This document shows, one piece after another, positions 18,166 to 63,961 of a stretch of 64,000 nucleotides of DNA. A program made the position numbers and the translations under genes. The notes under the pieces are model-generated. The model did not search any database. It was given only the letters and a program-made list of their open reading frames with translations, and had not been told where the DNA came from. The stretch's first letter is position 1; each line of letters opens with the position of its first letter. The stretch lies in NCBI GenBank assembly GCA_035530195.1, contig DATKVG010000103.1, forward strand, positions 4,069 through 68,068, read 5' to 3'. This DNA is from Candidatus Bathyarchaeia archaeon (GTDB taxonomy: Bacteria > Hydrogenedentota > Hydrogenedentia > Hydrogenedentales > SLHB01).

Positions 18166-18194
18166 GACGGCTGGGACGTCCGCACCGCAATAGC

Positions 18195-18228
18195 GGTCGC
18201 GCAGGAGCGCGACCCCACCGCATGCAGC
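18195..18228. repeat. REP-like hairpin element GGTCGCGC-rGGA-GCGCGACC followed by CCACCGCAT(T)GCAGC, copy 1
   Basis: It lies between the convergent dsbD and cysE genes. A near-identical copy sits at 37175-37209. Confidence 0.6.
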
Positions 18229-19314: not shown

Positions 19315-19420
19315 TAGAATCTTTGTTCGCGACATCTGCGCGCGCCGCGTAGATGTCGGCTCAAAGTCGCGAACAAAGATTCTGATTCCGGCTTACCAGC
19401 CGGCGGCTTCTTAGCCGCCT
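19315..19420. repeat. palindromic repeat element, copy 1 (18-bp perfect inverted repeats AGAATCTTTGTTCGCGAC flanking 33 bp, plus a GGCGGCTTCTTAGCCGCC hairpin tail)
   Basis: It is directly comparable with copy 2 at 29769-29875, which has the inverse orientation. Confidence 0.7.
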
Positions 19421-29768: not shown

Positions 29769-29875
29769 GCGACGGCTTTTTAAGCCGCGGCTTAAGAAGC
29801 CGCATTCAGAATCTTTGTTCGCGACCTTGAGCTAACATCTACGCGCCGTGCGCAGATGTCGCGAACAAAGATTCT
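29769..29875. repeat. palindromic repeat element, copy 2 (inverted orientation relative to copy 1)
   Basis: It has the same 18-bp inverted repeats. The internal 32 bp is the near reverse complement of copy 1's internal segment. The tail hairpins are on the opposite side. Confidence 0.7.
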
Positions 29876-29919
29876 AATAGCAAGTGAGGTAATGACATAT
29901 ATTTGGGAGGGGTACGTTT

Positions 29920-37017: not shown

Positions 37018-37174
37018 GGCATTTCTCCGATCTAACAGTCGCTAAGTCCTTTGTTTCTGGCGAAGAGCCTTTAGTAACTCTGTCCTTGGAAGCAGCGGTG
37101 GGGTCGAGATCCTGCTCGACCGTGGCTCCAACATCCCAACCTGCGCCTCCGGGGTACCGCCTCTGCCACCACCC

Positions 37175-37209
37175 GGTCGCGCGGGAGCGCGACCCCACCG
37201 CATTGCAGC
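37175..37209. repeat. REP-like hairpin element, copy 2
   Basis: ggtcgcgcgggagcgcgaccccaccgcattgcagc lies in the eda / LmbE-like divergent region. Confidence 0.6.
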
Positions 37210-55473: not shown

Positions 55474-56922
55474 ATGTGTACACATTGCACGCGTCGGCAT
55501 TTTCTAGGGGTAAGCGCGGCGACCGGGATAGCGCTGGCTACGGGCCATTTGGCGGTTGCCGCGAATGCGCCGACGTCCGCGGCCGCTACTGATTCAAAGG
55601 TCCGAATCTGTGCCATCATTGCCGGCAAGCCGGGGGAGATCAGTTGGAACCCGTCCGAAGCGGAAATCACGGCTGCGCGGGACCGCCTGGCCAAAGCAGA
55701 AAAAAACCTTGGCAACGTCGAATTCGTTGTCGGCCAGGCAAATAATGCCGAGGAGACCGCTCAGTTGCTGGACCAAGCCGGGCCCGACGCGCCCGTGCTC
55801 GTGATCAGCGCACACATCTTCGGGCCGACAAAGGTCATGCCGACCATCTTCGAACAGCGCCGGCCGGCCGCCTTGTTTCACCTCCCGGTCGTTGGCGGGC
55901 ACGACTGGTGCCTGGTGAAGCCGTGGCGCGAGGAAGGCAACCGGGTCACGCTCTTTAACAGCAGCGACTACAACGAACTGGAGCGGGCTGCGGCACTGCT
56001 TCGGGTGGTTCCGCTGTTGCGACGAAGCCGGGTACTCGTTTCTCCGCCGTTCAAGGGCACGCCCGAATCCTATGCGCCGGATAAGGTCAAAGAGCGGCTT
56101 GGGGTCGAACTCGTGCAGATCGCCGATGGGCGTTATGACGAGGTTATGGCGAATGTGGACGCTGCCGCCGCAGAGACCGAAGCGAAGACGTGGCTTGACG
56201 AGGCACAGAGTATCGTCGAACCGGCCCGCGAGGACGTTGTCAAGGCCGCCAAGGCTAGCCTGACCTTGGACCAGTTGATCGCCGAGAACCACGCTGACGC
56301 GTTGTGCGTCGGGACATGCATGGGCTGGCTCAACCGCGGTTTTCCATGCCTGGGCTTTTCGCGCCTTAACGACCGCGGAATCCCCGCCGCCTGCGACGGG
56401 GACGTGGACTGCGTCCTCACCATGTTGATGTTCCAGCACGCGCTGAACCAGGCCGGTTTCCTGGGCAACGCGGCGGGCGTGGATACGTCCAAGAACGCGT
56501 TTCACCTCTCCCACTGCTCAGCCCCGCTGCGAATGGAAGGCCCTGAGAGCCCCAGATCACCCTACCTGCTTCGCCGGCATGCGGAGGTCCGTGGCGGCGC
56601 AGTGACCGAAGTCCATTATCGCATCGGACAGAAAGTCACCTTCACCAAACTGGTCCACCTTGACACCCTGTTGATGTTTACCGGAAAGATCATCGAAGTC
56701 CCCGAGGTTCCCAAAGGCCAAGAACGGGGTTGCCGGACCGAAATCGCCGCCGAGGTAAATGACGCAGACAAGCTGCTGGAAAACTGGGGCGGCGGGGCAC
56801 TGGGCGCGAGCGCCAAGGACTACTACGCCTCGTTGCACCGGGTGGCCTACTACGGCGACCATACCCAAACCATCCGGCACTTGGCCCACCTGACTGGAAT
56901 GAAGGTCGTCGAGGAAGTCTGA
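55474..56922 (+). CDS. Tat-exported protein of unknown function
   Basis: Twin-arginine signal (TRRHFLGVSAATGIALATG...AVAANA). The 480-aa mature protein has no recognised motif. A long hairpin terminator follows. Confidence 0.6.
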   Translation: MCTHCTRRHFLGVSAATGIALATGHLAVAANAPTSAAATDSKVRICAIIAGKPGEISWNPSEAEITAARDRLAKAEKNLGNVEFVVGQANNAEETAQLLDQAGPDAPVLVISAHIFGPTKVMPTIFEQRRPAALFHLPVVGGHDWCLVKPWREEGNRVTLFNSSDYNELERAAALLRVVPLLRRSRVLVSPPFKGTPESYAPDKVKERLGVELVQIADGRYDEVMANVDAAAAETEAKTWLDEAQSIVEPAREDVVKAAKASLTLDQLIAENHADALCVGTCMGWLNRGFPCLGFSRLNDRGIPAACDGDVDCVLTMLMFQHALNQAGFLGNAAGVDTSKNAFHLSHCSAPLRMEGPESPRSPYLLRRHAEVRGGAVTEVHYRIGQKVTFTKLVHLDTLLMFTGKIIEVPEVPKGQERGCRTEIAAEVNDADKLLENWGGGALGASAKDYYASLHRVAYYGDHTQTIRHLAHLTGMKVVEEV

Positions 56923-56940
56923 CCGAACAAGACAATCGAA

Positions 56941-57030
56941 TCTGGAACTCAGGAACTCAGGAAGCAGACAGCCGCGCGATCGCAGACCTTCCCTGATCTC
57001 ATGAGTTCCAGATTTTCCTGACTTTGAAGC
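56941..57030 (+). terminator. long imperfect hairpin with U-rich tail after the Tat-exported protein gene; part of the segmental duplication
   Basis: atctggaactca...(~50 nt)...tgagttccagattttcc. A diverged copy lies at 61052-61135. Confidence 0.4.
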
Positions 57031-57073
57031 CGCGTTTTCATCTGGCTGTTTGCGGATTCCAATAAGAATCGGA

Positions 57074-57277
57074 TTACAGTCCGCACAACGCGTAGATCGT
57101 GCCGGCATGGTCTCCCACGAGGATAGACGCTTCGCCGCGGCCTTCGATGTCGGCCACAATCGGCGGCCCCAGGGTTTCCGGTGCTTCCCAACGCCACAGC
57201 ACGTGTCCCGCGGCCGTGTCAGTGGAGGTGGTGAAAAAAGGCGGTGGTTGTACTAAGGTTGCGGGGCACGTCTCCAT
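57074..57277 (-). pseudogene. remnant of the 3' end of a paralog of the FG-GAP repeat protein gene (61277-63961)
   Basis: The 67-aa ORF (…TDTAAGHVLWRWEAPETLGPPIVADIEGRGEASILVGDHAGTIYAL) matches the last ~50 aa of the 894-aa protein. The flanking DNA (56941-57250) is about 85% identical to 61052-61420. Confidence 0.5.
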
Positions 57278-58656
57278 ACGAGGTTTCCTCGCTCATCGAT
57301 TCCCAAGTTTCGGCGAAGGTGCTCGTTGAGGCTAAGGGCGCTCCCCATCGCGCTGTACAGCGAGTAACTATCCCCTGACGATTCGTAGCCAAAAGGCTGA
57401 CCCGTGAACGGGTCCAAAGGGATTGACCCGCCCAGCGTCGGCGCAACCCCGTTCAGCGTCGCGGGATATTCGCCGTTTTGCGCGTGATACTGCTCGATGG
57501 CGAGTCCCAGGCTCATGAGGCCCAGATAGGCCTCGTGCCGGGCTTGGGCTTCTGCGGCCCGGGTCAGCGCCGGCAGCACCATCCGCGACATAACCCGCGT
57601 GCGCGGCAAGCCCTGGATATCCGCGTCGATTTGGTCGAACACCGGCTTGGCCTCGTAGTAGGGCAGGGCGGCGGCCTCGCCTATCCGCCCGATGATGTCC
57701 GCGTAAGCCTCTTCGTCCATGTTCAGCCAAGGCCGGGCGACGGGACTGCCGTAAATGCGCATCAGGAAACCGTTCCAGGGATCGGACGAGGAGTAGATGA
57801 CTTGGTTGATGTTGCCGCTCCGGATTTCCTCAAAAGCACCCAGCCCGAAAAAGCCTTCTCCGTTGAACGAATTGGCGAAGGCCTCCCGCTGACCTGCCCG
57901 GGAAGCGTACTCAATGAGTTCCCTGGCCGCCTCGGGCGGCAATTCCTCACCGGGAATCGACGCGCTCACTGTTTCGTACACAATGCCGTCCATGGTAATA
58001 CGGACCAGTTGTGAGATGAGGATGGGCTCCTTGTCGAGGGCGTCGGCAAGCTTCATTGTGGCCAGCAGGTCTTGTACCGCTTCGCCGTACTCGCCCCGGT
58101 CGGCCTGCATCACGGCATCCGCCGCCAGCAGGCGCGCACAATCCCGAAGCTGCGCAAGATGTGGCAGCTCCATCGCAAACCCTTTCGAGAAATCTAACTC
58201 GTATACCGGCCCGCCCGATCGGGCCAGTTCGCGCAACTCGCGAATCACGTCGCTGCAAGCCGACAAATACTCCTTGATCTTCTCGCGGTCCGCGTCAGTC
58301 CACTCTGAGGTTTTCTTTGCGACAATCTCCTCCACCTCCTCCCAGGATGGATCGGCCTGCATGACCCTCCGTTTCTTGAATACATCCTCAAAACGGGCAA
58401 TGCTTTCTTCTTCTGAAGGTCCTGCATCGGGCATTTCAATGGACGGCTGTACGGGCGCGGCTTTCCCGTTTGGAGATGTCCCCGATACGAGGCTTTGGGC
58501 CACGTGCGGGTCGAGGGCTGCCGCGGTTTTGGCTCGGAGTTTTGACACGGCGGCGGCGCGGTTCCCTTCCGTGACGAGATAGCCAATCGTCGCAGCCACC
58601 CCGATGGCGGTCACGCCAACCATTCCGATCAACCATTTATCCCGGGACGCGGCCAT
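57253..58656 (-). CDS. membrane-anchored hypothetical protein
   Basis: N-terminal signal-anchor TM helix. The ~440-aa periplasmic region has no recognised domain. Confidence 0.55.
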   Translation of the reverse strand: MAASRDKWLIGMVGVTAIGVAATIGYLVTEGNRAAAVSKLRAKTAAALDPHVAQSLVSGTSPNGKAAPVQPSIEMPDAGPSEEESIARFEDVFKKRRVMQADPSWEEVEEIVAKKTSEWTDADREKIKEYLSACSDVIRELRELARSGGPVYELDFSKGFAMELPHLAQLRDCARLLAADAVMQADRGEYGEAVQDLLATMKLADALDKEPILISQLVRITMDGIVYETVSASIPGEELPPEAARELIEYASRAGQREAFANSFNGEGFFGLGAFEEIRSGNINQVIYSSSDPWNGFLMRIYGSPVARPWLNMDEEAYADIIGRIGEAAALPYYEAKPVFDQIDADIQGLPRTRVMSRMVLPALTRAAEAQARHEAYLGLMSLGLAIEQYHAQNGEYPATLNGVAPTLGGSIPLDPFTGQPFGYESSGDSYSLYSAMGSALSLNEHLRRNLGIDERGNLVWRRAPQP

Positions 58657-58884
58657 TGTTCCCTTCCTCCTGAATGAGTATGACTGCCGTACTGAACCTC
58701 GATCAACCGTAGCGAGTCAGTAGTGCATCACTGGGGCATTTTAAGGTTGAGATGCGTCACGCGCCGAAACTGTTCGATTAAACGTAGAAGAGGCTTCTAG
58801 CCTCTTGCTCTCCACGGCCAAGCCGCAAGCACGCGGCAAGATGCCGCGTCTACTACCTACTGAAGCCGCTGCAAAAAACGCGGG

Positions 58885-60999
58885 CTACGGAATTGCAATG
58901 TGAAGGCCATCCTCGTTACGGGCGGCGGCAAAGGCCTGTTTGAGCCAAGTCGACTCGCTCGCGTCCACGCTCAGGTTGTGTGCAGTGACCTCGCGATCAC
59001 CAAGCACGGCCAGCCATTGGGGTACGTCGCCGTAACGCAGGATAAACGGGATGATCGGCAGGCCGTCCGGTTGGTCCCGCCAATTCCTGTAGGTTTCGTA
59101 CCGGCAACCGTTCAGATCCACGTCCAACACGCGAATTCGGGGATCGAGGATGCCGGCGAAAACGGCCGCCAGACCCAAGTATGCCGTGCCGTGAGTCTCG
59201 ATGCGGACCGATTCGAGGTTCGCCGCCGGATACTGCTCGAGCGCCTGCAGCACGCTCCGGATGTCCGACACGGCCATGCCCACAATCGGCCGCCCCCACA
59301 CGATGCCGTTGCGCTCCCAGGCCCAGAGCAGATGATTCAGTTGGTCTTCGGGTTTCTCATAAGCGCTCAGGTTCGAAGCGACGTTATGCTTGACAAGGTC
59401 CGGTCCAATCTTGCCCGCAAGTCCCGCAAGGTCGTACACGCCCGTGAAACGGATGTCGGCCAGCACAACCAATTCGCCTTTCATTGCGCGTTCAACATAT
59501 GAGCCGGCCTTGTCGCGGCCAGTCGAACCGCCGCTTCGAAGCACGAGTGAGACGGGCCACGGGCGCGCTGCATCGCCGGCAGGCCGAACGATGAGCCCCG
59601 GCAAGCGGAGATCTCCCTCCGAAGGGAAAAGTACTTGTTCGACGAGTGCCCCGCCGTCGCGTCGCGCCTCTCCCAACTCCATTCCCTTGCGGGCGGTAGG
59701 GAGCCGGGCGTCCAATCCCAGCAATTGCGGAAGCACGCCAGCCATTTCCTTCTGATAGGGTGCCCAGTCGGCTTGCGTATCGAGATTCCGCTGCACAAAG
59801 TGGAACCGCTCGCGAAATATCGTCGATAGATGGCTGAGGCCCTTGTTACGCGGATTGTCGATGGGCAGGTCGTTTATGGTTTCCGGCGGAGAGATGGTCA
59901 CGACCTCTTTGGGCTCGTCCGGAATGGGCTGCTTGAAGTCGCCGTCGTTCCTGAGCCATTTCTCCATCCACCAGTAGGTCCGCTCCCTCTTTGGCTGATC
60001 GTACGCGTGCTCGGTAGGCCAGTATGTGCAACTCGCACGGTCAGGGTGGCCGTTGGCGCGGTATAAGTCCAATATCGTGGGGTAGTTGTCGTGCGGGAAG
60101 TGGCGCGTCCAATCGTTCATGACGAGGTACTGTATGGGGCGCGGGAAAGCCAGTGCGCTGATCTCGGGCCAGTCGGTGTAGGACATGACGTTGGGCCAGT
60201 GGTTGCACTCACAATGCGCAGCATGGGGAAACATAATCTCCCGGTAGTCGCATGTGAGCCCGACAATGGTGGCGGCTTGCACGCGGGCGTCCAACGCGGT
60301 GACCATCTGTGTCTGAAGACCGCCGCCCGATGCCCCCGCCACGCCGATCCGCTCGGGATCGACCTCCGGCAGCGATTGCAACAAATCGATACCCCGCATG
60401 TTGGTCCAGATCATGTGCGTTTGATGCGAAATCCCCAAGGCAAGGTCCTCGTAATGGTTTTGCTTCGGGCTCAACACGACATAACCCATCTTGGCGAGAA
60501 CAACGCAGCGTTTCTGCACGTCGGGGGCCGCGTAACCCTCTTTCCAGTGACCGTGCGGGCACAGCATCCCCGGCGCGGGCCGGTCGACGAACTCCTTGGG
60601 CGTGAACAGCAGTCCGGACGTATACACACCCGGCCACAGTTGGTACTCGATCTTTTCGATCGTGCACCACGGGTGATCGATGGGCGCCGACTTGTGAACA
60701 TCCAGATCGATCCGTTCCGGCAGAGGATCGAGGCCCACGTCGTTCAGCAACCTCGAACGCAGCTCCTGCTGGCGGGCAGTCAACGCGTCTCCCGTTAACA
60801 CAGGGAACGGTTCAGGGACGGACATGGCCTCAAAGTAGGCCGTCAACGCTGTCGCCGCTTCCCGGCCCGTTACGGGCGATTGAGCATGCACCGCCGCCGT
60901 CCCAAGTATCATCAGGACAAGACACGTAGCCGGAACGGACGCCCGGCGCACCTTCAGACGAACTGCCGGCTTGAAAAGGCTCACATACACCAGGAGCAC
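58885..60999 (-). CDS. secreted alpha/beta hydrolase, paralog of the 2767-4707 product
   Basis: Signal-like N-terminus. It has a nucleophile elbow GVAGASGGG and a two-lobed architecture equivalent to the first hydrolase. The start may be an internal ATG about 29 codons downstream. Confidence 0.6.
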   Translation of the reverse strand: MLLVYVSLFKPAVRLKVRRASVPATCLVLMILGTAAVHAQSPVTGREAATALTAYFEAMSVPEPFPVLTGDALTARQQELRSRLLNDVGLDPLPERIDLDVHKSAPIDHPWCTIEKIEYQLWPGVYTSGLLFTPKEFVDRPAPGMLCPHGHWKEGYAAPDVQKRCVVLAKMGYVVLSPKQNHYEDLALGISHQTHMIWTNMRGIDLLQSLPEVDPERIGVAGASGGGLQTQMVTALDARVQAATIVGLTCDYREIMFPHAAHCECNHWPNVMSYTDWPEISALAFPRPIQYLVMNDWTRHFPHDNYPTILDLYRANGHPDRASCTYWPTEHAYDQPKRERTYWWMEKWLRNDGDFKQPIPDEPKEVVTISPPETINDLPIDNPRNKGLSHLSTIFRERFHFVQRNLDTQADWAPYQKEMAGVLPQLLGLDARLPTARKGMELGEARRDGGALVEQVLFPSEGDLRLPGLIVRPAGDAARPWPVSLVLRSGGSTGRDKAGSYVERAMKGELVVLADIRFTGVYDLAGLAGKIGPDLVKHNVASNLSAYEKPEDQLNHLLWAWERNGIVWGRPIVGMAVSDIRSVLQALEQYPAANLESVRIETHGTAYLGLAAVFAGILDPRIRVLDVDLNGCRYETYRNWRDQPDGLPIIPFILRYGDVPQWLAVLGDREVTAHNLSVDASESTWLKQAFAAARNEDGLHIAIP

Positions 61000-61276
61000 C
61001 TCCTGTCGGGTACGGTGTTGCGTTCAAGCACGTACAGACAAAACTCACACACCATCTGGAACTCAAGAACCCAGGAAACAGACAACTGCGCGAATACCAA
61101 CCTTCCTGATTTCCTGAGTTCGAGATTCTCTTGGTTTTGGAACCGTAATTGTATCTGTTTGTTCGCGAATTGGTATGAGTCACAGCATTTAAGCGCCTTG
61201 AGAGTACCAGATTGCATACGGCTTGTAGTACCAGCGTTTCCCGCGCCCGCGTGGCAATAGACCGCGGGACCTGGCC

Positions 61277-63961
61277 CTACCCGCGCAAGGCGTAGATCGT
61301 GCCGGCCTGGTCTCCCACGAGGATAGACGCCTCGCTCTTGCCTTCCAGGTCGGCCACAATCAGCGGGCCGAGGGTTGACGGCGCTTCCCAACGCCACAGC
61401 ACGTGTCCCGCGGCCGTGTCTGCGGCGGTGGTGACGGCGCAGAGGGTTGTACCTGCGGTCGCGAGGATATCGCATCGCCCGTCGCCATTGATGTCGGCGC
61501 TGGCCACGCCCGTAAGCGTGCCCGGCAAGGGCGGCGACATGGTCCATTCGACGGTGCCCTTCCGCACGTCGTAGCATCGCCAGCCGTCGCCAAAACCTGT
61601 GCCCATCGTCTCGAGCGCGCCGTCCCCGTCAAAATCGCCGAAGGCGAACAGTCCCAGCCCTTTTCCCGATTCGTCGGACCAGACCAGTTGTCCGGCGTGG
61701 TCGATCAGCGCGGTCAAGTCGGTGCCCGCCATGAACAGATAAGGTTTGGCCTCGAGGCCCGCCAACTCAGGCATGGCCACGGGCCGGCCCCAGTACACGG
61801 GATTATCCTTGACCGTGGGCCAGCTCGTATCCCGCTTGAGCAACAGTTCGCCCGTTGCGCCATCGAGTACATAGAGCAGCGAAGGATAGAACGAGGCCAC
61901 GTCGTCCAGCCCGTCGCCATCGAAGTCGGCGAGCGCAAAGGCCGTCCCGCCCACTCCGCGGTTCTGGTGCGGGGTCGCTTGACGCCGTTGCCGCCAGCAT
62001 TCCCGACCGTCCTGGCCTGACAACAGCGCCGTCTCTTCGCTGTGCATCATAGACCGGCGCACGGTCACCAAGACGTCCATGCGCTCAGGATGCGTGAAGT
62101 GGCCCGCTTGCCACAACACAATCCCGCCTACGTTCCAGGTAGGCAGGTCCCCGGGAATGTCGGGAAAATCGTGATGCCAAACCTCTTTGCCGGTGACTAC
62201 GTCTTCCGCCACAAAACGGGCGCAGCCTTCCGGGGCTCTGGCGGCATACAGCAACGCCCTGCGTCCGTCGCCCGCGAGATCGGCAAGCACCGGCCCCGGC
62301 GAAATCGATCCTTCCCACGAGGTGTCCTGCACCCTTCCGGTTGTGCGGCGCACTATTTCCGCCGGTTGGTCTCCGCGCGGTGGATGCAACAGCACGATTT
62401 CCTCGCCACTGCCCCGGACAACCACGACAGGTTGCGCGTCCGCGCGCGCGTTTTCCTGCCCAGCCCACACCACCGCCGGAGGCGCCAGCGATACCCCTGG
62501 ATGTTGGGTTGCCTGCATGTCCACGCGGCCCTGGACAGTGAGGGTTTGCCCGGCGCGTGACTGAAAAAGCAGCGACCCAGAACCGTCAATCGCCAGACCG
62601 GACAGCCCCGCGCCTGTAACCGAGCCCTCCTGCCGGAATCCATTGTCCCACCGGGCGAGCGCCAGGACGGACTCGGTCCTCAATGCCGCGACGAACCCCC
62701 GGGACGAAGCTCGCGCCAGCACGGTTTCCTGGCCCAGCGTTGCCCCGGCGTATACGTGCTCCGCTACGGGTGCGCGATGATGCTCCCAGGCCCTGCCCGA
62801 CGATTGCCAGACGCACTCCAATCTGTTCGCGCCCGCCCCTGCGCGCCATTTCCACACCCGGATCGGGCCCCACTGCGCCACGGCCGCCCCTTGGGTATCG
62901 GTGGTCAACAGTTCGGCCCGGCCGTCGCCGTCCACGTCCATGGCTGCTTCGAAATAAGCGTCGTCAAGCTCCGCTTTCACCACCCCGGTCAGCCCGTCGC
63001 GCACGTGCGCGTGCCAACGACTGTCGCGCCGCTCGTTGTAGCCGCTCCATATCACCTCCGCCACGCCGTCGCCATCCATGTCCGCCACGCAAGTCGGCCT
63101 CACACGCACGATCGTGCTTGGATCGTCGATGATCAACTCGATTTCCTGTTTCCACAGCAGTTCGAGACGCCCTTCCCGAAACCCGAGCACGTCCACGTGC
63201 TTGGCGAAATCCGCCAACACTACAAATTCCCACAACCCGTCTCCGTTCAAATCGTGCGCGCCAAAATAGCCATAGTTTCGGCCCGGCGTGAACTTGCATC
63301 GCTGTTCAAGCCGGCCCGTGGCCGCGTCGAAAAGATGCAGGGCGTACCATGGCAGCACGGCGATCTCGAGTTGGCCGTCATGATCGTAATCTTCCGCCAG
63401 CAGGCCCACGTTGCTCGTGTTGCCGCCGGGCCGCCAGTCGCTTTCCCACTGCACTTGCCACACCCCGTCTTTCCACGCCCGGCACACCACCCGGAAATCC
63501 TTGTCGTATTGGCCCCGGGGCCGCATTTCATAAACCACTTCTTCGACGCCGGGTATCTCCGGCAAGACGTCCGCCAGTACCCGCGCCGATACGTTTTCCG
63601 GGCGCGGCTGAACCTTGCCATCGAGTAATACGTCCCTCGCCTGCGGATACCACCTCGCCATATCCGGCAACGATTGCGGCAGGCCGGCCGTCTCCACCGC
63701 AACAGTGTGTTCCGCGATTCCGTCCAACGCCAGCGATCCCAGCGCCAACACCGTTCCCACGTCGTACTGCCACGCCACCCGCGGCGACTCGATATGGCCC
63801 TTGAGCGGCGAGTACGAGAGCCGCGTGCCATCGCGCTTTTCGCACGGCCATTCCGCGGCATTGGGAAATGCCGACGGCTTCGGAAACGCCGGTTCCGAGT
63901 GACCCGCGATGCAGACAGCAAGAGCCGCCAACGCCGCGCACAATGTTCTGCGCGTCATCAC
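61277..63961 (-). CDS. secreted FG-GAP/beta-propeller repeat protein
   Basis: Signal peptide (MMTRRTLCAALAALAVCIAG). It carries multiple DxDGDG / DFDGDG calcium-binding FG-GAP-like repeats. Confidence 0.65.
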   Translation of the reverse strand: MMTRRTLCAALAALAVCIAGHSEPAFPKPSAFPNAAEWPCEKRDGTRLSYSPLKGHIESPRVAWQYDVGTVLALGSLALDGIAEHTVAVETAGLPQSLPDMARWYPQARDVLLDGKVQPRPENVSARVLADVLPEIPGVEEVVYEMRPRGQYDKDFRVVCRAWKDGVWQVQWESDWRPGGNTSNVGLLAEDYDHDGQLEIAVLPWYALHLFDAATGRLEQRCKFTPGRNYGYFGAHDLNGDGLWEFVVLADFAKHVDVLGFREGRLELLWKQEIELIIDDPSTIVRVRPTCVADMDGDGVAEVIWSGYNERRDSRWHAHVRDGLTGVVKAELDDAYFEAAMDVDGDGRAELLTTDTQGAAVAQWGPIRVWKWRAGAGANRLECVWQSSGRAWEHHRAPVAEHVYAGATLGQETVLARASSRGFVAALRTESVLALARWDNGFRQEGSVTGAGLSGLAIDGSGSLLFQSRAGQTLTVQGRVDMQATQHPGVSLAPPAVVWAGQENARADAQPVVVVRGSGEEIVLLHPPRGDQPAEIVRRTTGRVQDTSWEGSISPGPVLADLAGDGRRALLYAARAPEGCARFVAEDVVTGKEVWHHDFPDIPGDLPTWNVGGIVLWQAGHFTHPERMDVLVTVRRSMMHSEETALLSGQDGRECWRQRRQATPHQNRGVGGTAFALADFDGDGLDDVASFYPSLLYVLDGATGELLLKRDTSWPTVKDNPVYWGRPVAMPELAGLEAKPYLFMAGTDLTALIDHAGQLVWSDESGKGLGLFAFGDFDGDGALETMGTGFGDGWRCYDVRKGTVEWTMSPPLPGTLTGVASADINGDGRCDILATAGTTLCAVTTAADTAAGHVLWRWEAPSTLGPLIVADLEGKSEASILVGDQAGTIYALRG

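Follow-up and report, generated by a model that had tools for sequence, protein, structure and literature searches.

How does a bacterial genome come to hold, directly behind an unrelated gene, the detached end of another gene together with the non-coding DNA that follows it? This question is raised by a 64,000-nt stretch of contig DATKVG010000103.1 (assembly GCA_035530195.1, positions 4,069 to 68,068), called the window below. In it, a short open reading frame (ORF) of 67 codons, ORF67, resembles the C-terminus of an 893-aa FG-GAP/VCBS beta-propeller protein that is encoded intact about 4.2 kb away. A first-pass annotation, made from the letters alone, had taken the region for a diverged copy of the last ~150 bp of the FG-GAP gene with the spacer and hairpin behind them. 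We have found that the duplication is genuine, and we consider it somewhat short of even odds, at a rough probability of 0.45, that the fragment is the displaced resident 3' tail of the FG-GAP gene, pushed aside when a block from a diverged lineage was inserted by recombination.

A collinear duplication of the FG-GAP gene tail

The two copies, designated A (at ORF67) and B (at the FG-GAP gene), are collinear on the plus strand, with the same order and orientation of their parts, and the repeat covers 56940-57234 (possibly to 57253) and 61054-61434 (possibly to 61453). Its coding block, 57081-57234 against 61281-61434, aligns without gaps at 135 of 154 identical nt (88%), with a local alignment score of 213 where 200 shuffles gave 21 ± 2.1 (maximum 30). 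The non-coding block (56940-57080 and 61054-61280) is identical at 106 of 140 aligned columns (76%), the first 53 nt from 56940 and 61054 reaching 81%. Over the whole repeat 241 of 294 aligned columns are identical (82%), which is close to the roughly 85% claimed at first; the 88 gap columns are there because the spacer of copy B has ~87 extra nt. No similarity between the copies was detected in the flank outside the palindrome (z=-1.2), and in the flank past 57234 it was not significant (z=1.8). Beyond a scrambled patch of 11 versus 10 nt, the sequence GTACAACC is common to 57245-57252 and 61445-61452, which hints that the homology runs to the stop codon of the neighbouring 467-aa gene. With the conserved palindrome arms excluded, the loop (z=5.5) and the spacer (z=5.1) are still significantly similar; because they too are common to both copies, the palindromes are not independent insertions and, on this similarity, descend from each other or from a common ancestor. 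The features of the locus are as follows, listed from upstream to downstream along the minus strand.

Upstream neighbour of the FG-GAP gene, minus strand: CN_hydrolase gene
61277-63958, minus strand: intact FG-GAP/VCBS beta-propeller gene, 893 aa (Pfam FG-GAP_3 and FG-GAP; homologues)
61280-61435, minus strand: coding repeat block, copy B, the last ~52 codons of the FG-GAP gene
61127-61276: spacer B, 150 nt, homologous to spacer A, with the ~87 extra nt at roughly 61173-61258 (alignment)
61054-61126: palindromic element, copy B, each arm with 2 mismatches to the family consensus (fold, arm matching)
58885-60999, minus strand: 704-aa alpha/beta-hydrolase, glucuronyl / acetyl-xylan esterase-like (Pfam GCE_fung, AXE1), between the repeats
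57253-58656, minus strand: 467-aa membrane-anchored protein with a pseudopilin-like C-terminus, between the repeats
57235-57253: junction, a scrambled 11-nt patch and then GTACAACC as in the parent, abutting the TAG stop of the 467-aa gene
57074-57277, minus strand: ORF67, 67 codons (ORF list; gene callers)
57081-57234, minus strand: ungapped coding repeat block, copy A, 88% identical to 61281-61434
57016-57073: spacer A, 58 nt, from palindrome A to the stop codon of the remnant, homologous to spacer B
56939-57015: palindromic element, copy A, arms at ~56939-56963 and 56990-57015, loop of ~26 nt (fold, arm matching)
56923-56939: post-stop tail of the 482-aa gene, CCGAACAAGACAATCGA, kept in relatives; synteny stops at 56940
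55474-56922, plus strand: 482-aa gene, convergent on the repeat (ORF; no Pfam domain)

The minus-strand order is thus CN_hydrolase, FG-GAP, spacer, palindrome, 704-aa gene, 467-aa gene, ORF67, spacer, palindrome, and 17 nt separate palindrome A from the stop codon of the convergent 482-aa gene.

A structure of this kind might be produced by an assembler that stitched two strain alleles of the FG-GAP tail into one contig. The samples do hold at least two lineages, as the contig L006 (described below) indicates, and repeats break some of the assemblies: the Logan contigs L004 and L005, from two independent short-read assemblies, end at 57191, within a 38-nt stretch identical between both copies, which is a typical repeat-induced contig break. 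Against this, an identical structure over both junctions was recovered in ENA MEGAHIT, JGI and Logan assemblies, in contigs of 16-40 kb. Eight contigs from these sources, representing 6 distinct samples, match the window; seven are 100% identical to it, the eighth (L006) differs solely in the 482-aa gene, and the species is clonal over the locus in all its contigs. Copy A is included in six of the eight. Because four of them span both copies, across independent assemblies that reproduce both junctions, the repeat is not a mis-assembly, and we regard the stitching of alleles as extremely improbable. The repeat is a collinear segmental direct duplication of the FG-GAP tail, spacer and palindrome.

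At the protein level, ORF67 residues 24-66 agree with the C-terminal 43 of the parent at 36 positions (84%, E=5e-22), so that the peptide match noticed in the first-pass annotation is real. The last 52 codons of ORF67 (57080-57235) are in the parental FG-GAP frame and correspond to the last propeller blade; the sequence ends in ...ILVGDQAGTIYALRG, which aligns as a blade across the family. The pattern LW...GPP.(I/V)AD..G.G.ASIL..G.DG.(V/I)Y.. was present in every family member examined, and all of these proteins end no more than 2 residues from it. The motif also weakly matches an internal blade of the FG-GAP protein (residues 549-576) and the propeller repeats of AfsK. Like known FG-GAP / VCBS / PQQ-like beta-propeller repeats, ORF67 residues 24-66 form a recognizable blade, the terminal one of the 893-aa protein; unlike them, ORF67 comprises this single blade, with the rest of the propeller absent. 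Its first ~15 codons are made of an out-of-frame overlap with the 467-aa gene and of junction sequence. ORF67 overlaps the end of that gene by 25 nt, and both its ATG and the AGGA upstream lie within the conserved ...DERGNLVW... codons of the 467-aa gene. Of the mini-ORF proposed at first, the open frame stands, whereas the retained start codon does not, being an out-of-frame ATG within the conserved V-W codons of the neighbour.

Gene callers annotated ORF67 on every contig that includes it. No Pfam match of its own was found, and among the loci searched there was no stand-alone homologue, the matches being C-termini of full-length proteins only. The short ORF annotated on every public contig with this region is most likely an accidental by-product.

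Substitution polarity, recombination at the junction and the origin of the fragment

Polarity tests can separate a recently displaced functional gene end from an old, decaying pseudogene. The closest FG-GAP orthologue (P0002, locus L011; 68% protein identity) served as the outgroup, and the comparison was made over the last 43 codons. Private sites numbered 29 in the outgroup, 11 in copy B and 3 in copy A, and all three sequences differed at 3 sites; the 17 differences between the copies thus consist of 11 private to B, 3 private to A and 3 not polarised. If copy A had decayed neutrally in place with copy B still under constraint, about 69% of the changes would be expected on it (our own estimate, in which omega of about 0.25 is assumed for B). 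The observed 3 of 14 deviates from this expectation (P=3.4e-4), the comparison with equal rates giving a two-sided P of 0.057. Moreover, copy A keeps the near-invariant proline of 'GPP' and glycine of 'EGRG', at which copy B has leucine and serine, and its EGRGEASIL is identical to that of the orthologue.

No stops or frameshifts were found in copy A across the 52 codons. Divergence at silent sites of the coding block (dS 0.24) matches that of the non-coding DNA (0.29), yet the 154-nt coding block has no indels, with at least 3 in the neighbouring 141-nt non-coding part, and both copies were thus shielded from frameshifts over most of the time since they separated. The ratio of non-synonymous to synonymous substitution rates (dN/dS) was 0.46-0.56 between A and B and 0.17-0.20 between either copy and the outgroup. 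The polarity, the retained residues and the open frame reject a simple neutral decay of the fragment in place, and with it the earlier proposal of a tandem paralogue that was mostly deleted and then decayed, for which 3 private changes against 11 and the retention of near-invariant residues are the wrong pattern. On this evidence both copies were selected, over most of that time, for a frame that stayed open and blade-like. This leaves two readings, in one of which ORF67 is functional, whereas in the other an FG-GAP gene still ended in copy A, as its working terminus, until a recent date. Shielding of both copies is what one would expect of functional alleles diverging in two separate lineages.

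Exchange between diverged lineages has indeed taken place at this junction. Contig L006 (ENA ERZ27256847 k141_420389), obtained from another sample, is equivalent to 56753-58689 of the window. It is identical to the window over 56882-58689, that is, over the 467-aa gene, the fragment and palindrome A, and it differs at 19 of 125 nt within 56757-56881, all of them at the end of the 482-aa gene, where 12 codons are changed synonymously and 6 non-synonymously. This block is therefore common to two lineages that differ by about 15%, and the recombination breakpoint of the strain variant falls within 60 nt of palindrome A. The same place limits synteny with relatives. Three loci with orthologues of the 482-aa gene (L143, L137, L142) keep its post-stop tail (CCGAACAAGACAATCGAA in the window) and then diverge at the start of palindrome A, a point that is at once the outer end of the palindrome and the start of the A/B repeat. 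The palindrome thus marks both a synteny breakpoint and an inter-lineage recombination breakpoint at this locus, and the suggestion of a recombination hotspot in the first-pass annotation fits these data. On the other side, the closest FG-GAP orthologue keeps the CN_hydrolase neighbour and has a convergent ABC-transporter gene 10 nt past its stop codon; neither the 704-aa and 467-aa genes nor the palindrome lie downstream of it. Synteny in the homologue contexts examined is limited to the CN_hydrolase-FG-GAP pair.

In the genome under study, the block of the 704-aa and 467-aa genes is flanked by direct repeats, each of which is a contiguous piece of the FG-GAP locus in its native order. The explanation that we favour, at the odds given above, would involve a single event, in which about 4.2 kb of DNA from a related lineage, ~12-25% diverged, integrated into the 3' region of the FG-GAP gene. 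The imported piece would have carried its own FG-GAP tail, spacer and palindrome along with two genes, for the 704-aa esterase and the 467-aa protein. A circular intermediate could have entered by one crossover (Campbell-type insertion-duplication); alternatively, a homologous anchor inside the FG-GAP gene was combined with illegitimate joining at the 467-aa stop codon, i.e. with homology-facilitated illegitimate recombination. The imported tail, copy B, would now complete the FG-GAP gene. Copy A, the resident tail, would have been displaced along with its spacer and palindrome to become a promoterless remnant whose frame happens to be reached from the out-of-frame ATG in the 467-aa gene, giving ORF67. 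Such an insertion accounts for the direct repeats, their divergence, the intact and consensus-like copy A, the absence of a recombinase gene and the inter-lineage exchange. The duplication by itself is a modest result; as a gene-tail swap with the old tail left behind, it would be a clean natural example.

Several observations weigh against this explanation. Neither a donor genome nor a pre-insertion ('empty') allele was found among the homologues and their contigs, including the contexts of the FG-GAP (P0002, P0003), 467-aa (P0122, P0124) and 482-aa (P0241-P0244) homologues; every contig of this species has the full arrangement, and the neighbourhoods in the available relatives differ. The position of the junction exactly at the stop codon of the 467-aa gene would be a coincidence. 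Scans with Pfam and NCBIfam revealed no integrase, transposase or other recombinase encoded in the block. The polarity rests on only 14 informative sites and on an outgroup 27-33% diverged, at which distance homoplasy is possible; the dN/dS between A and B exceeds that between either copy and the outgroup. A sister-lineage donor predicts equal branches, so that the 11:3 asymmetry (P=0.057) would need a faster copy-B lineage. Finally, L006 is a short contig with adapter at its end (it starts with the Illumina adapter sequence TACACGACGCTCTTCCGATCT); even if it were chimeric, an assembly at k=141 requires a second lineage sharing at least 141 nt, palindrome A included.

The rival explanations differ in what they make of the same data. 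The duplication might have arisen in place within this genome, copy A then drifting as a non-functional remnant, either by tandem duplication of the whole tail-spacer-palindrome-704-467 unit followed by loss of the second 704-467 pair, or by a one-sided event ('transduction') in which the palindromic element and the DNA beside it were copied to a position 4.1 kb off. A genome in which both copies stand 4.2 kb apart is the simplest source of either; one boundary of the repeat lies 1-2 nt from the sharp outer terminus of the palindrome, as expected if the element, or a break there, drove the copying; the base composition carries no foreign-DNA signature, and the dN/dS of 0.46-0.56 suggests some relaxation. 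However, the polarity is the reverse of that expected, with 3 private changes on the supposedly neutral copy and 11 on the constrained one (P=3.4e-4), near-invariant residues are retained in copy A, and not a single indel has accumulated in 154 nt in spite of ~0.25-0.3 substitutions per silent site. In addition, the tandem route needs two events, and no filled/empty polymorphism that would demonstrate mobility of the element was found among the fetched loci. An origin in place runs counter to the polarity and the indel data unless selection acts on ORF67; it seems to us unlikely, though clearly a more serious candidate than those that follow.

On another view ORF67 is a genuine gene, translationally coupled to the 467-aa gene, and purifying selection maintains its single-blade mini-protein or its RNA. 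Its frame is intact, an AGGA stands 8 nt upstream of an ATG that overlaps the end of the 467-aa gene, copy A is little changed and keeps the consensus residues, the coding block is free of indels, and gene callers annotate it on all contigs including the region. On the other hand, the conserved D-E-R-G-N-L-V-W codons of the 467-aa gene yield both the ATG and the AGGA as by-products, the first ~15 residues come from out-of-frame reading or from the junction, there is neither a Pfam match of its own nor a stand-alone homologue in the loci searched, and the arrangement is known from one species only. A single blade of a multi-blade beta-propeller is not expected to fold alone, which also counts against a gene. 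We hold this view to be improbable. Still further down in likelihood, at a level we would call very slight, is the idea, also raised at first, that the C-terminal ~45 aa form a module for sorting or anchoring, carried by many proteins, whose recurrence would be unremarkable. Conservation of the motif at the C-terminus of all family members examined speaks for it. The motif, however, aligns as the last FG-GAP/PQQ-like blade in every member checked and weakly resembles an internal blade and the AfsK repeats; the sequence has neither a hydrophobic helix followed by a basic tail nor a motif of the LPXTG or PEP-CTERM type, and no Pfam or NCBIfam match to a C-terminal sorting signal (LPXTG, PEP-CTERM or type IX secretion system C-terminal domain) was obtained. 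Only two copies of it occur within the 64-kb window, and the nucleotide repeat extends into the non-coding spacer and the palindrome, which a protein module cannot explain.

The displaced-tail explanation would make the duplication a known kind of event, an insertion-duplication or a gene tail displaced as at island integration sites. Homology-facilitated illegitimate recombination has reportedly been demonstrated in naturally transformable bacteria. As in that process and in Campbell-type integration, the foreign DNA would here be anchored by homology on one side, the inserted block lies beside a duplicated or displaced piece of the target, and a dedicated recombinase gene is unnecessary. The present case differs in that donor and empty site were not found among the homologue contigs, that the repeats are 12-25% diverged, a similarity low for efficient homologous recombination, and that a palindromic element stands at one of the boundaries. 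Certain genomic islands enter the 3' end of a gene, which may be a tRNA, a tmRNA or, in some cases, a protein gene; they supply it with a new 3' end and leave the displaced partial copy as the second att repeat. The locus resembles them in having an intact gene with a new tail, cargo, and an old-tail remnant as direct repeats; it differs in that the cargo consists of two ordinary genes without an integrase, and in that no identical core set within unrelated sequence is obvious in the repeats. An integrase-borne island was rejected, as by Pfam and NCBIfam the 704-aa and 467-aa proteins are an esterase-like hydrolase and a member of an uncharacterised family only.

The palindrome and its wider family

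The hairpin at the end of each repeat had been described as a terminator. That label did not survive: a consensus terminator scan of 56500-61700 reported neither palindrome, and the arm sequence itself recurs in unrelated metagenome contigs. The arm family was collected by an exact-pattern metagenome scan with CTGGAACTCANGAACNCAGGAA, in which counts refer to the matches listed and are lower bounds. The pattern was found in at least 119 metagenome contigs (L018-L136). The bases AAT before the pattern, outside the search, are almost invariant and extend the arm to the 25-nt AATCTGGAACTCAGGAACTCAGGAA, conserved at 1.1-2.0 bits per position except at the two free positions of the pattern (0.5 and 1.6 bits). 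In the flanks conservation falls to background (at most 0.5 bit), which gives the arm a sharp outer boundary. Among the matches listed, host contigs range from 37 to 72% GC, an inverted partner lies no more than 2.5 kb from 80 of the 133 arms, and the interiors are unrelated in sequence and continuous in length, all but two being shorter than 600 nt. The GGAACTCA unit is present one to three times, and up to 3 arms occur within 4.3 kb (L040). The 5' arm of copy A is exactly the modal 24-mer of the family, ATCTGGAACTCAGGAACTCAGGAA (24/24), and its other arm matches at 20 of 24 positions. In the 64-kb window there are just the two duplicated members of the family, and in ~130 kb of related loci there are none. 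Because the arm sequence, and not the structure alone, is conserved in so many contigs, the palindrome belongs to a family of palindromic repeats and is not a terminator private to this locus, and its arm is conserved across uncultured bacteria of very different base composition.

The palindrome regions fold at about -40 to -50 kcal/mol, with a stem of ~25-30 bp, and no convincing compensatory changes were seen between the two hairpin copies, copy B being simply mismatched. A strong hairpin downstream of convergent or tandem genes is what Rho-independent terminators also have; unlike them, the stem is long and not especially GC-rich, the minus strand lacks a proper U-run after it (copy A is followed by TTTTCC on the plus strand), and the sequence is conserved far beyond structural need. 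A crude ORF analysis placed the elements between genes in all gene arrangements, with no clear terminator-like orientation bias. The palindrome may terminate transcription nonetheless. A gathering scan of the whole window against Rfam gave no hit to the palindrome, and in E-value scans the region and eight family members produced nothing beyond generic matches to miRNA precursors, all below threshold.

With the REP/BIME, ERIC and Correia (NEMIS) sequences and other miniature inverted-repeat transposable elements (MITEs) the family shares inverted-repeat arms of ~25 nt, the sharp outer boundary, the intergenic location and the presence of several copies in some contigs. It differs from them in an arm conserved, among the matches listed, across contigs of 37-72% GC around unrelated interiors, and in the occasional GxxExxY cargo; neither a target-site duplication nor a transposase was evident, and no filled/empty sites were found among the fetched loci. 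Palindromic intergenic repeats can serve as RNA hairpins or terminators and as recombination breakpoints. The palindrome studied here probably acts in both capacities, as an RNA hairpin at gene ends (a terminator or processing site) and as a preferred breakpoint. An integron attC site was considered and dismissed: the arm AATCTGGAACTCAGGAA... lacks the GTTRRRY core consensus and, in a scan for intI limited to the adjacent genes, neither proved to be an integrase.

Where the interior measures 410-575 nt, it contains a complete gene for a GxxExxY protein (TIGR04256, E=1e-32 to 1e-38), flanked directly by the arms; such copies are found in L038 (156-598), L078, L094 and L126, and also in L063, L081, L093 and L129. 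A search for a consistent gene family downstream of single arms failed, GxxExxY alone recurring, and no GxxExxY gene is encoded in the window. This arrangement suggests an arm-nuclease-arm unit, of which the short hairpins are possibly empty derivatives. It is thus conceivable, though we rate it at well below even chances, that the palindrome represents an undescribed, widespread, nuclease-associated inverted-repeat element, recombinogenic or mobile. Such an element would have 25-nt arms (AATCTGGAACTCAGGAACTCAGGAA) around interiors of 0-600 nt, its full-length form carrying the gene for the GxxExxY (PD-(D/E)XK-like) nuclease and its short forms being MITE-like hairpins. As sites of breakage and recombination, these elements would reshuffle gene neighbourhoods and drag or duplicate gene ends, the present duplication being one footprint. 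Neither strand of the arm sequence had a match in the searchable literature, where 'GxxExxY' is mentioned merely in passing; plasmid collections contained no arm match, and viral collections only 7 matches, in viral contigs. Should the elements prove to be mobile or cleavage targets, they would offer a new handle on the reshuffling of gene order in poorly studied phyla, and a first functional context for the GxxExxY family, on which there is almost no literature.

A second palindromic intergenic element, TAGAATCTTTGTTCGCGAC...GTCGCGAACAAAGATTCTGA, is present in the window at 19315-19409 and 29782-29876; it is 95 nt long, its copies are 86% identical, and each stands upstream of a gene unrelated to the other. 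The element shares its termini, GAATCT/AGATTC, with the GGAACTCA-type palindrome, which hints at a common recognition mechanism for both palindrome types. One-arm-like sequences (ATCTGTTTGTTCGCGAATT) occur in spacers A and B.

Neighbouring genes and host

The FG-GAP parent matches the Pfam families FG-GAP_3 (E=5e-25) and FG-GAP (E=8e-14), and exactly the same protein was found on 8 public contigs. The 704-aa hydrolase gene was called as 701 aa by gene callers. The 467-aa protein has no Pfam or NCBIfam match. Its gene is of full length and has its native C-terminus, the homologues being 457-470 aa long with the same ...GN(L/I)VWR... ending, and its nucleotide homology to locus L014 extends to 57270. 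The possibility that it is a frameshifted FG-GAP paralogue was discarded on account of this uniform length and C-terminus and of the absence of similarity in BLASTP. According to the neighbourhoods of its homologues, the family is multicopy and occurs in unrelated contexts; three paralogues (P0126, P0135, P0141) lie together on one 9.1-kb contig. The protein has an N-terminal membrane anchor and the C-terminal pseudopilin-like motif YHAQNG.YP..L..VAP.LGG..P.DPFTGQP..Y.

For the 482-aa protein, the scans gave a weak NCBIfam match to sulfoquinovose isomerase. It is 75-90% identical to proteins from metagenome-assembled genomes (MAGs) labelled Planctomycetes, Phycisphaerae, Omnitrophica and Armatimonadota, and on these identities its conservation across phyla is unusually high for an uncharacterised family. 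A 481-aa gene near the 467-aa orthologue in L014 was considered as its counterpart and rejected, being merely a 25% paralogue.

The source MAG is named 'Candidatus Bathyarchaeia archaeon' at NCBI (records of P0001 and P0121). Its gene content, however, includes a bacterial F-type ATP synthase operon, and the closest homologues are from Hydrogenedentes, Planctomycetes and Verrucomicrobia. Because the operon and the homologues point to bacterial phyla, the host is probably an uncultured bacterium, and the archaeal label would result from mis-binning.

One more direct repeat was noticed elsewhere in the window, 30 nt long and 29/30 identical, at 18194-18223 and 37174-37203. This small palindrome, rich in GC, reads CGGTCGCGC.GGAGCGCGACC and then CCACCGCAT; possibly it is one more repeated short element of the hairpin or terminator type.

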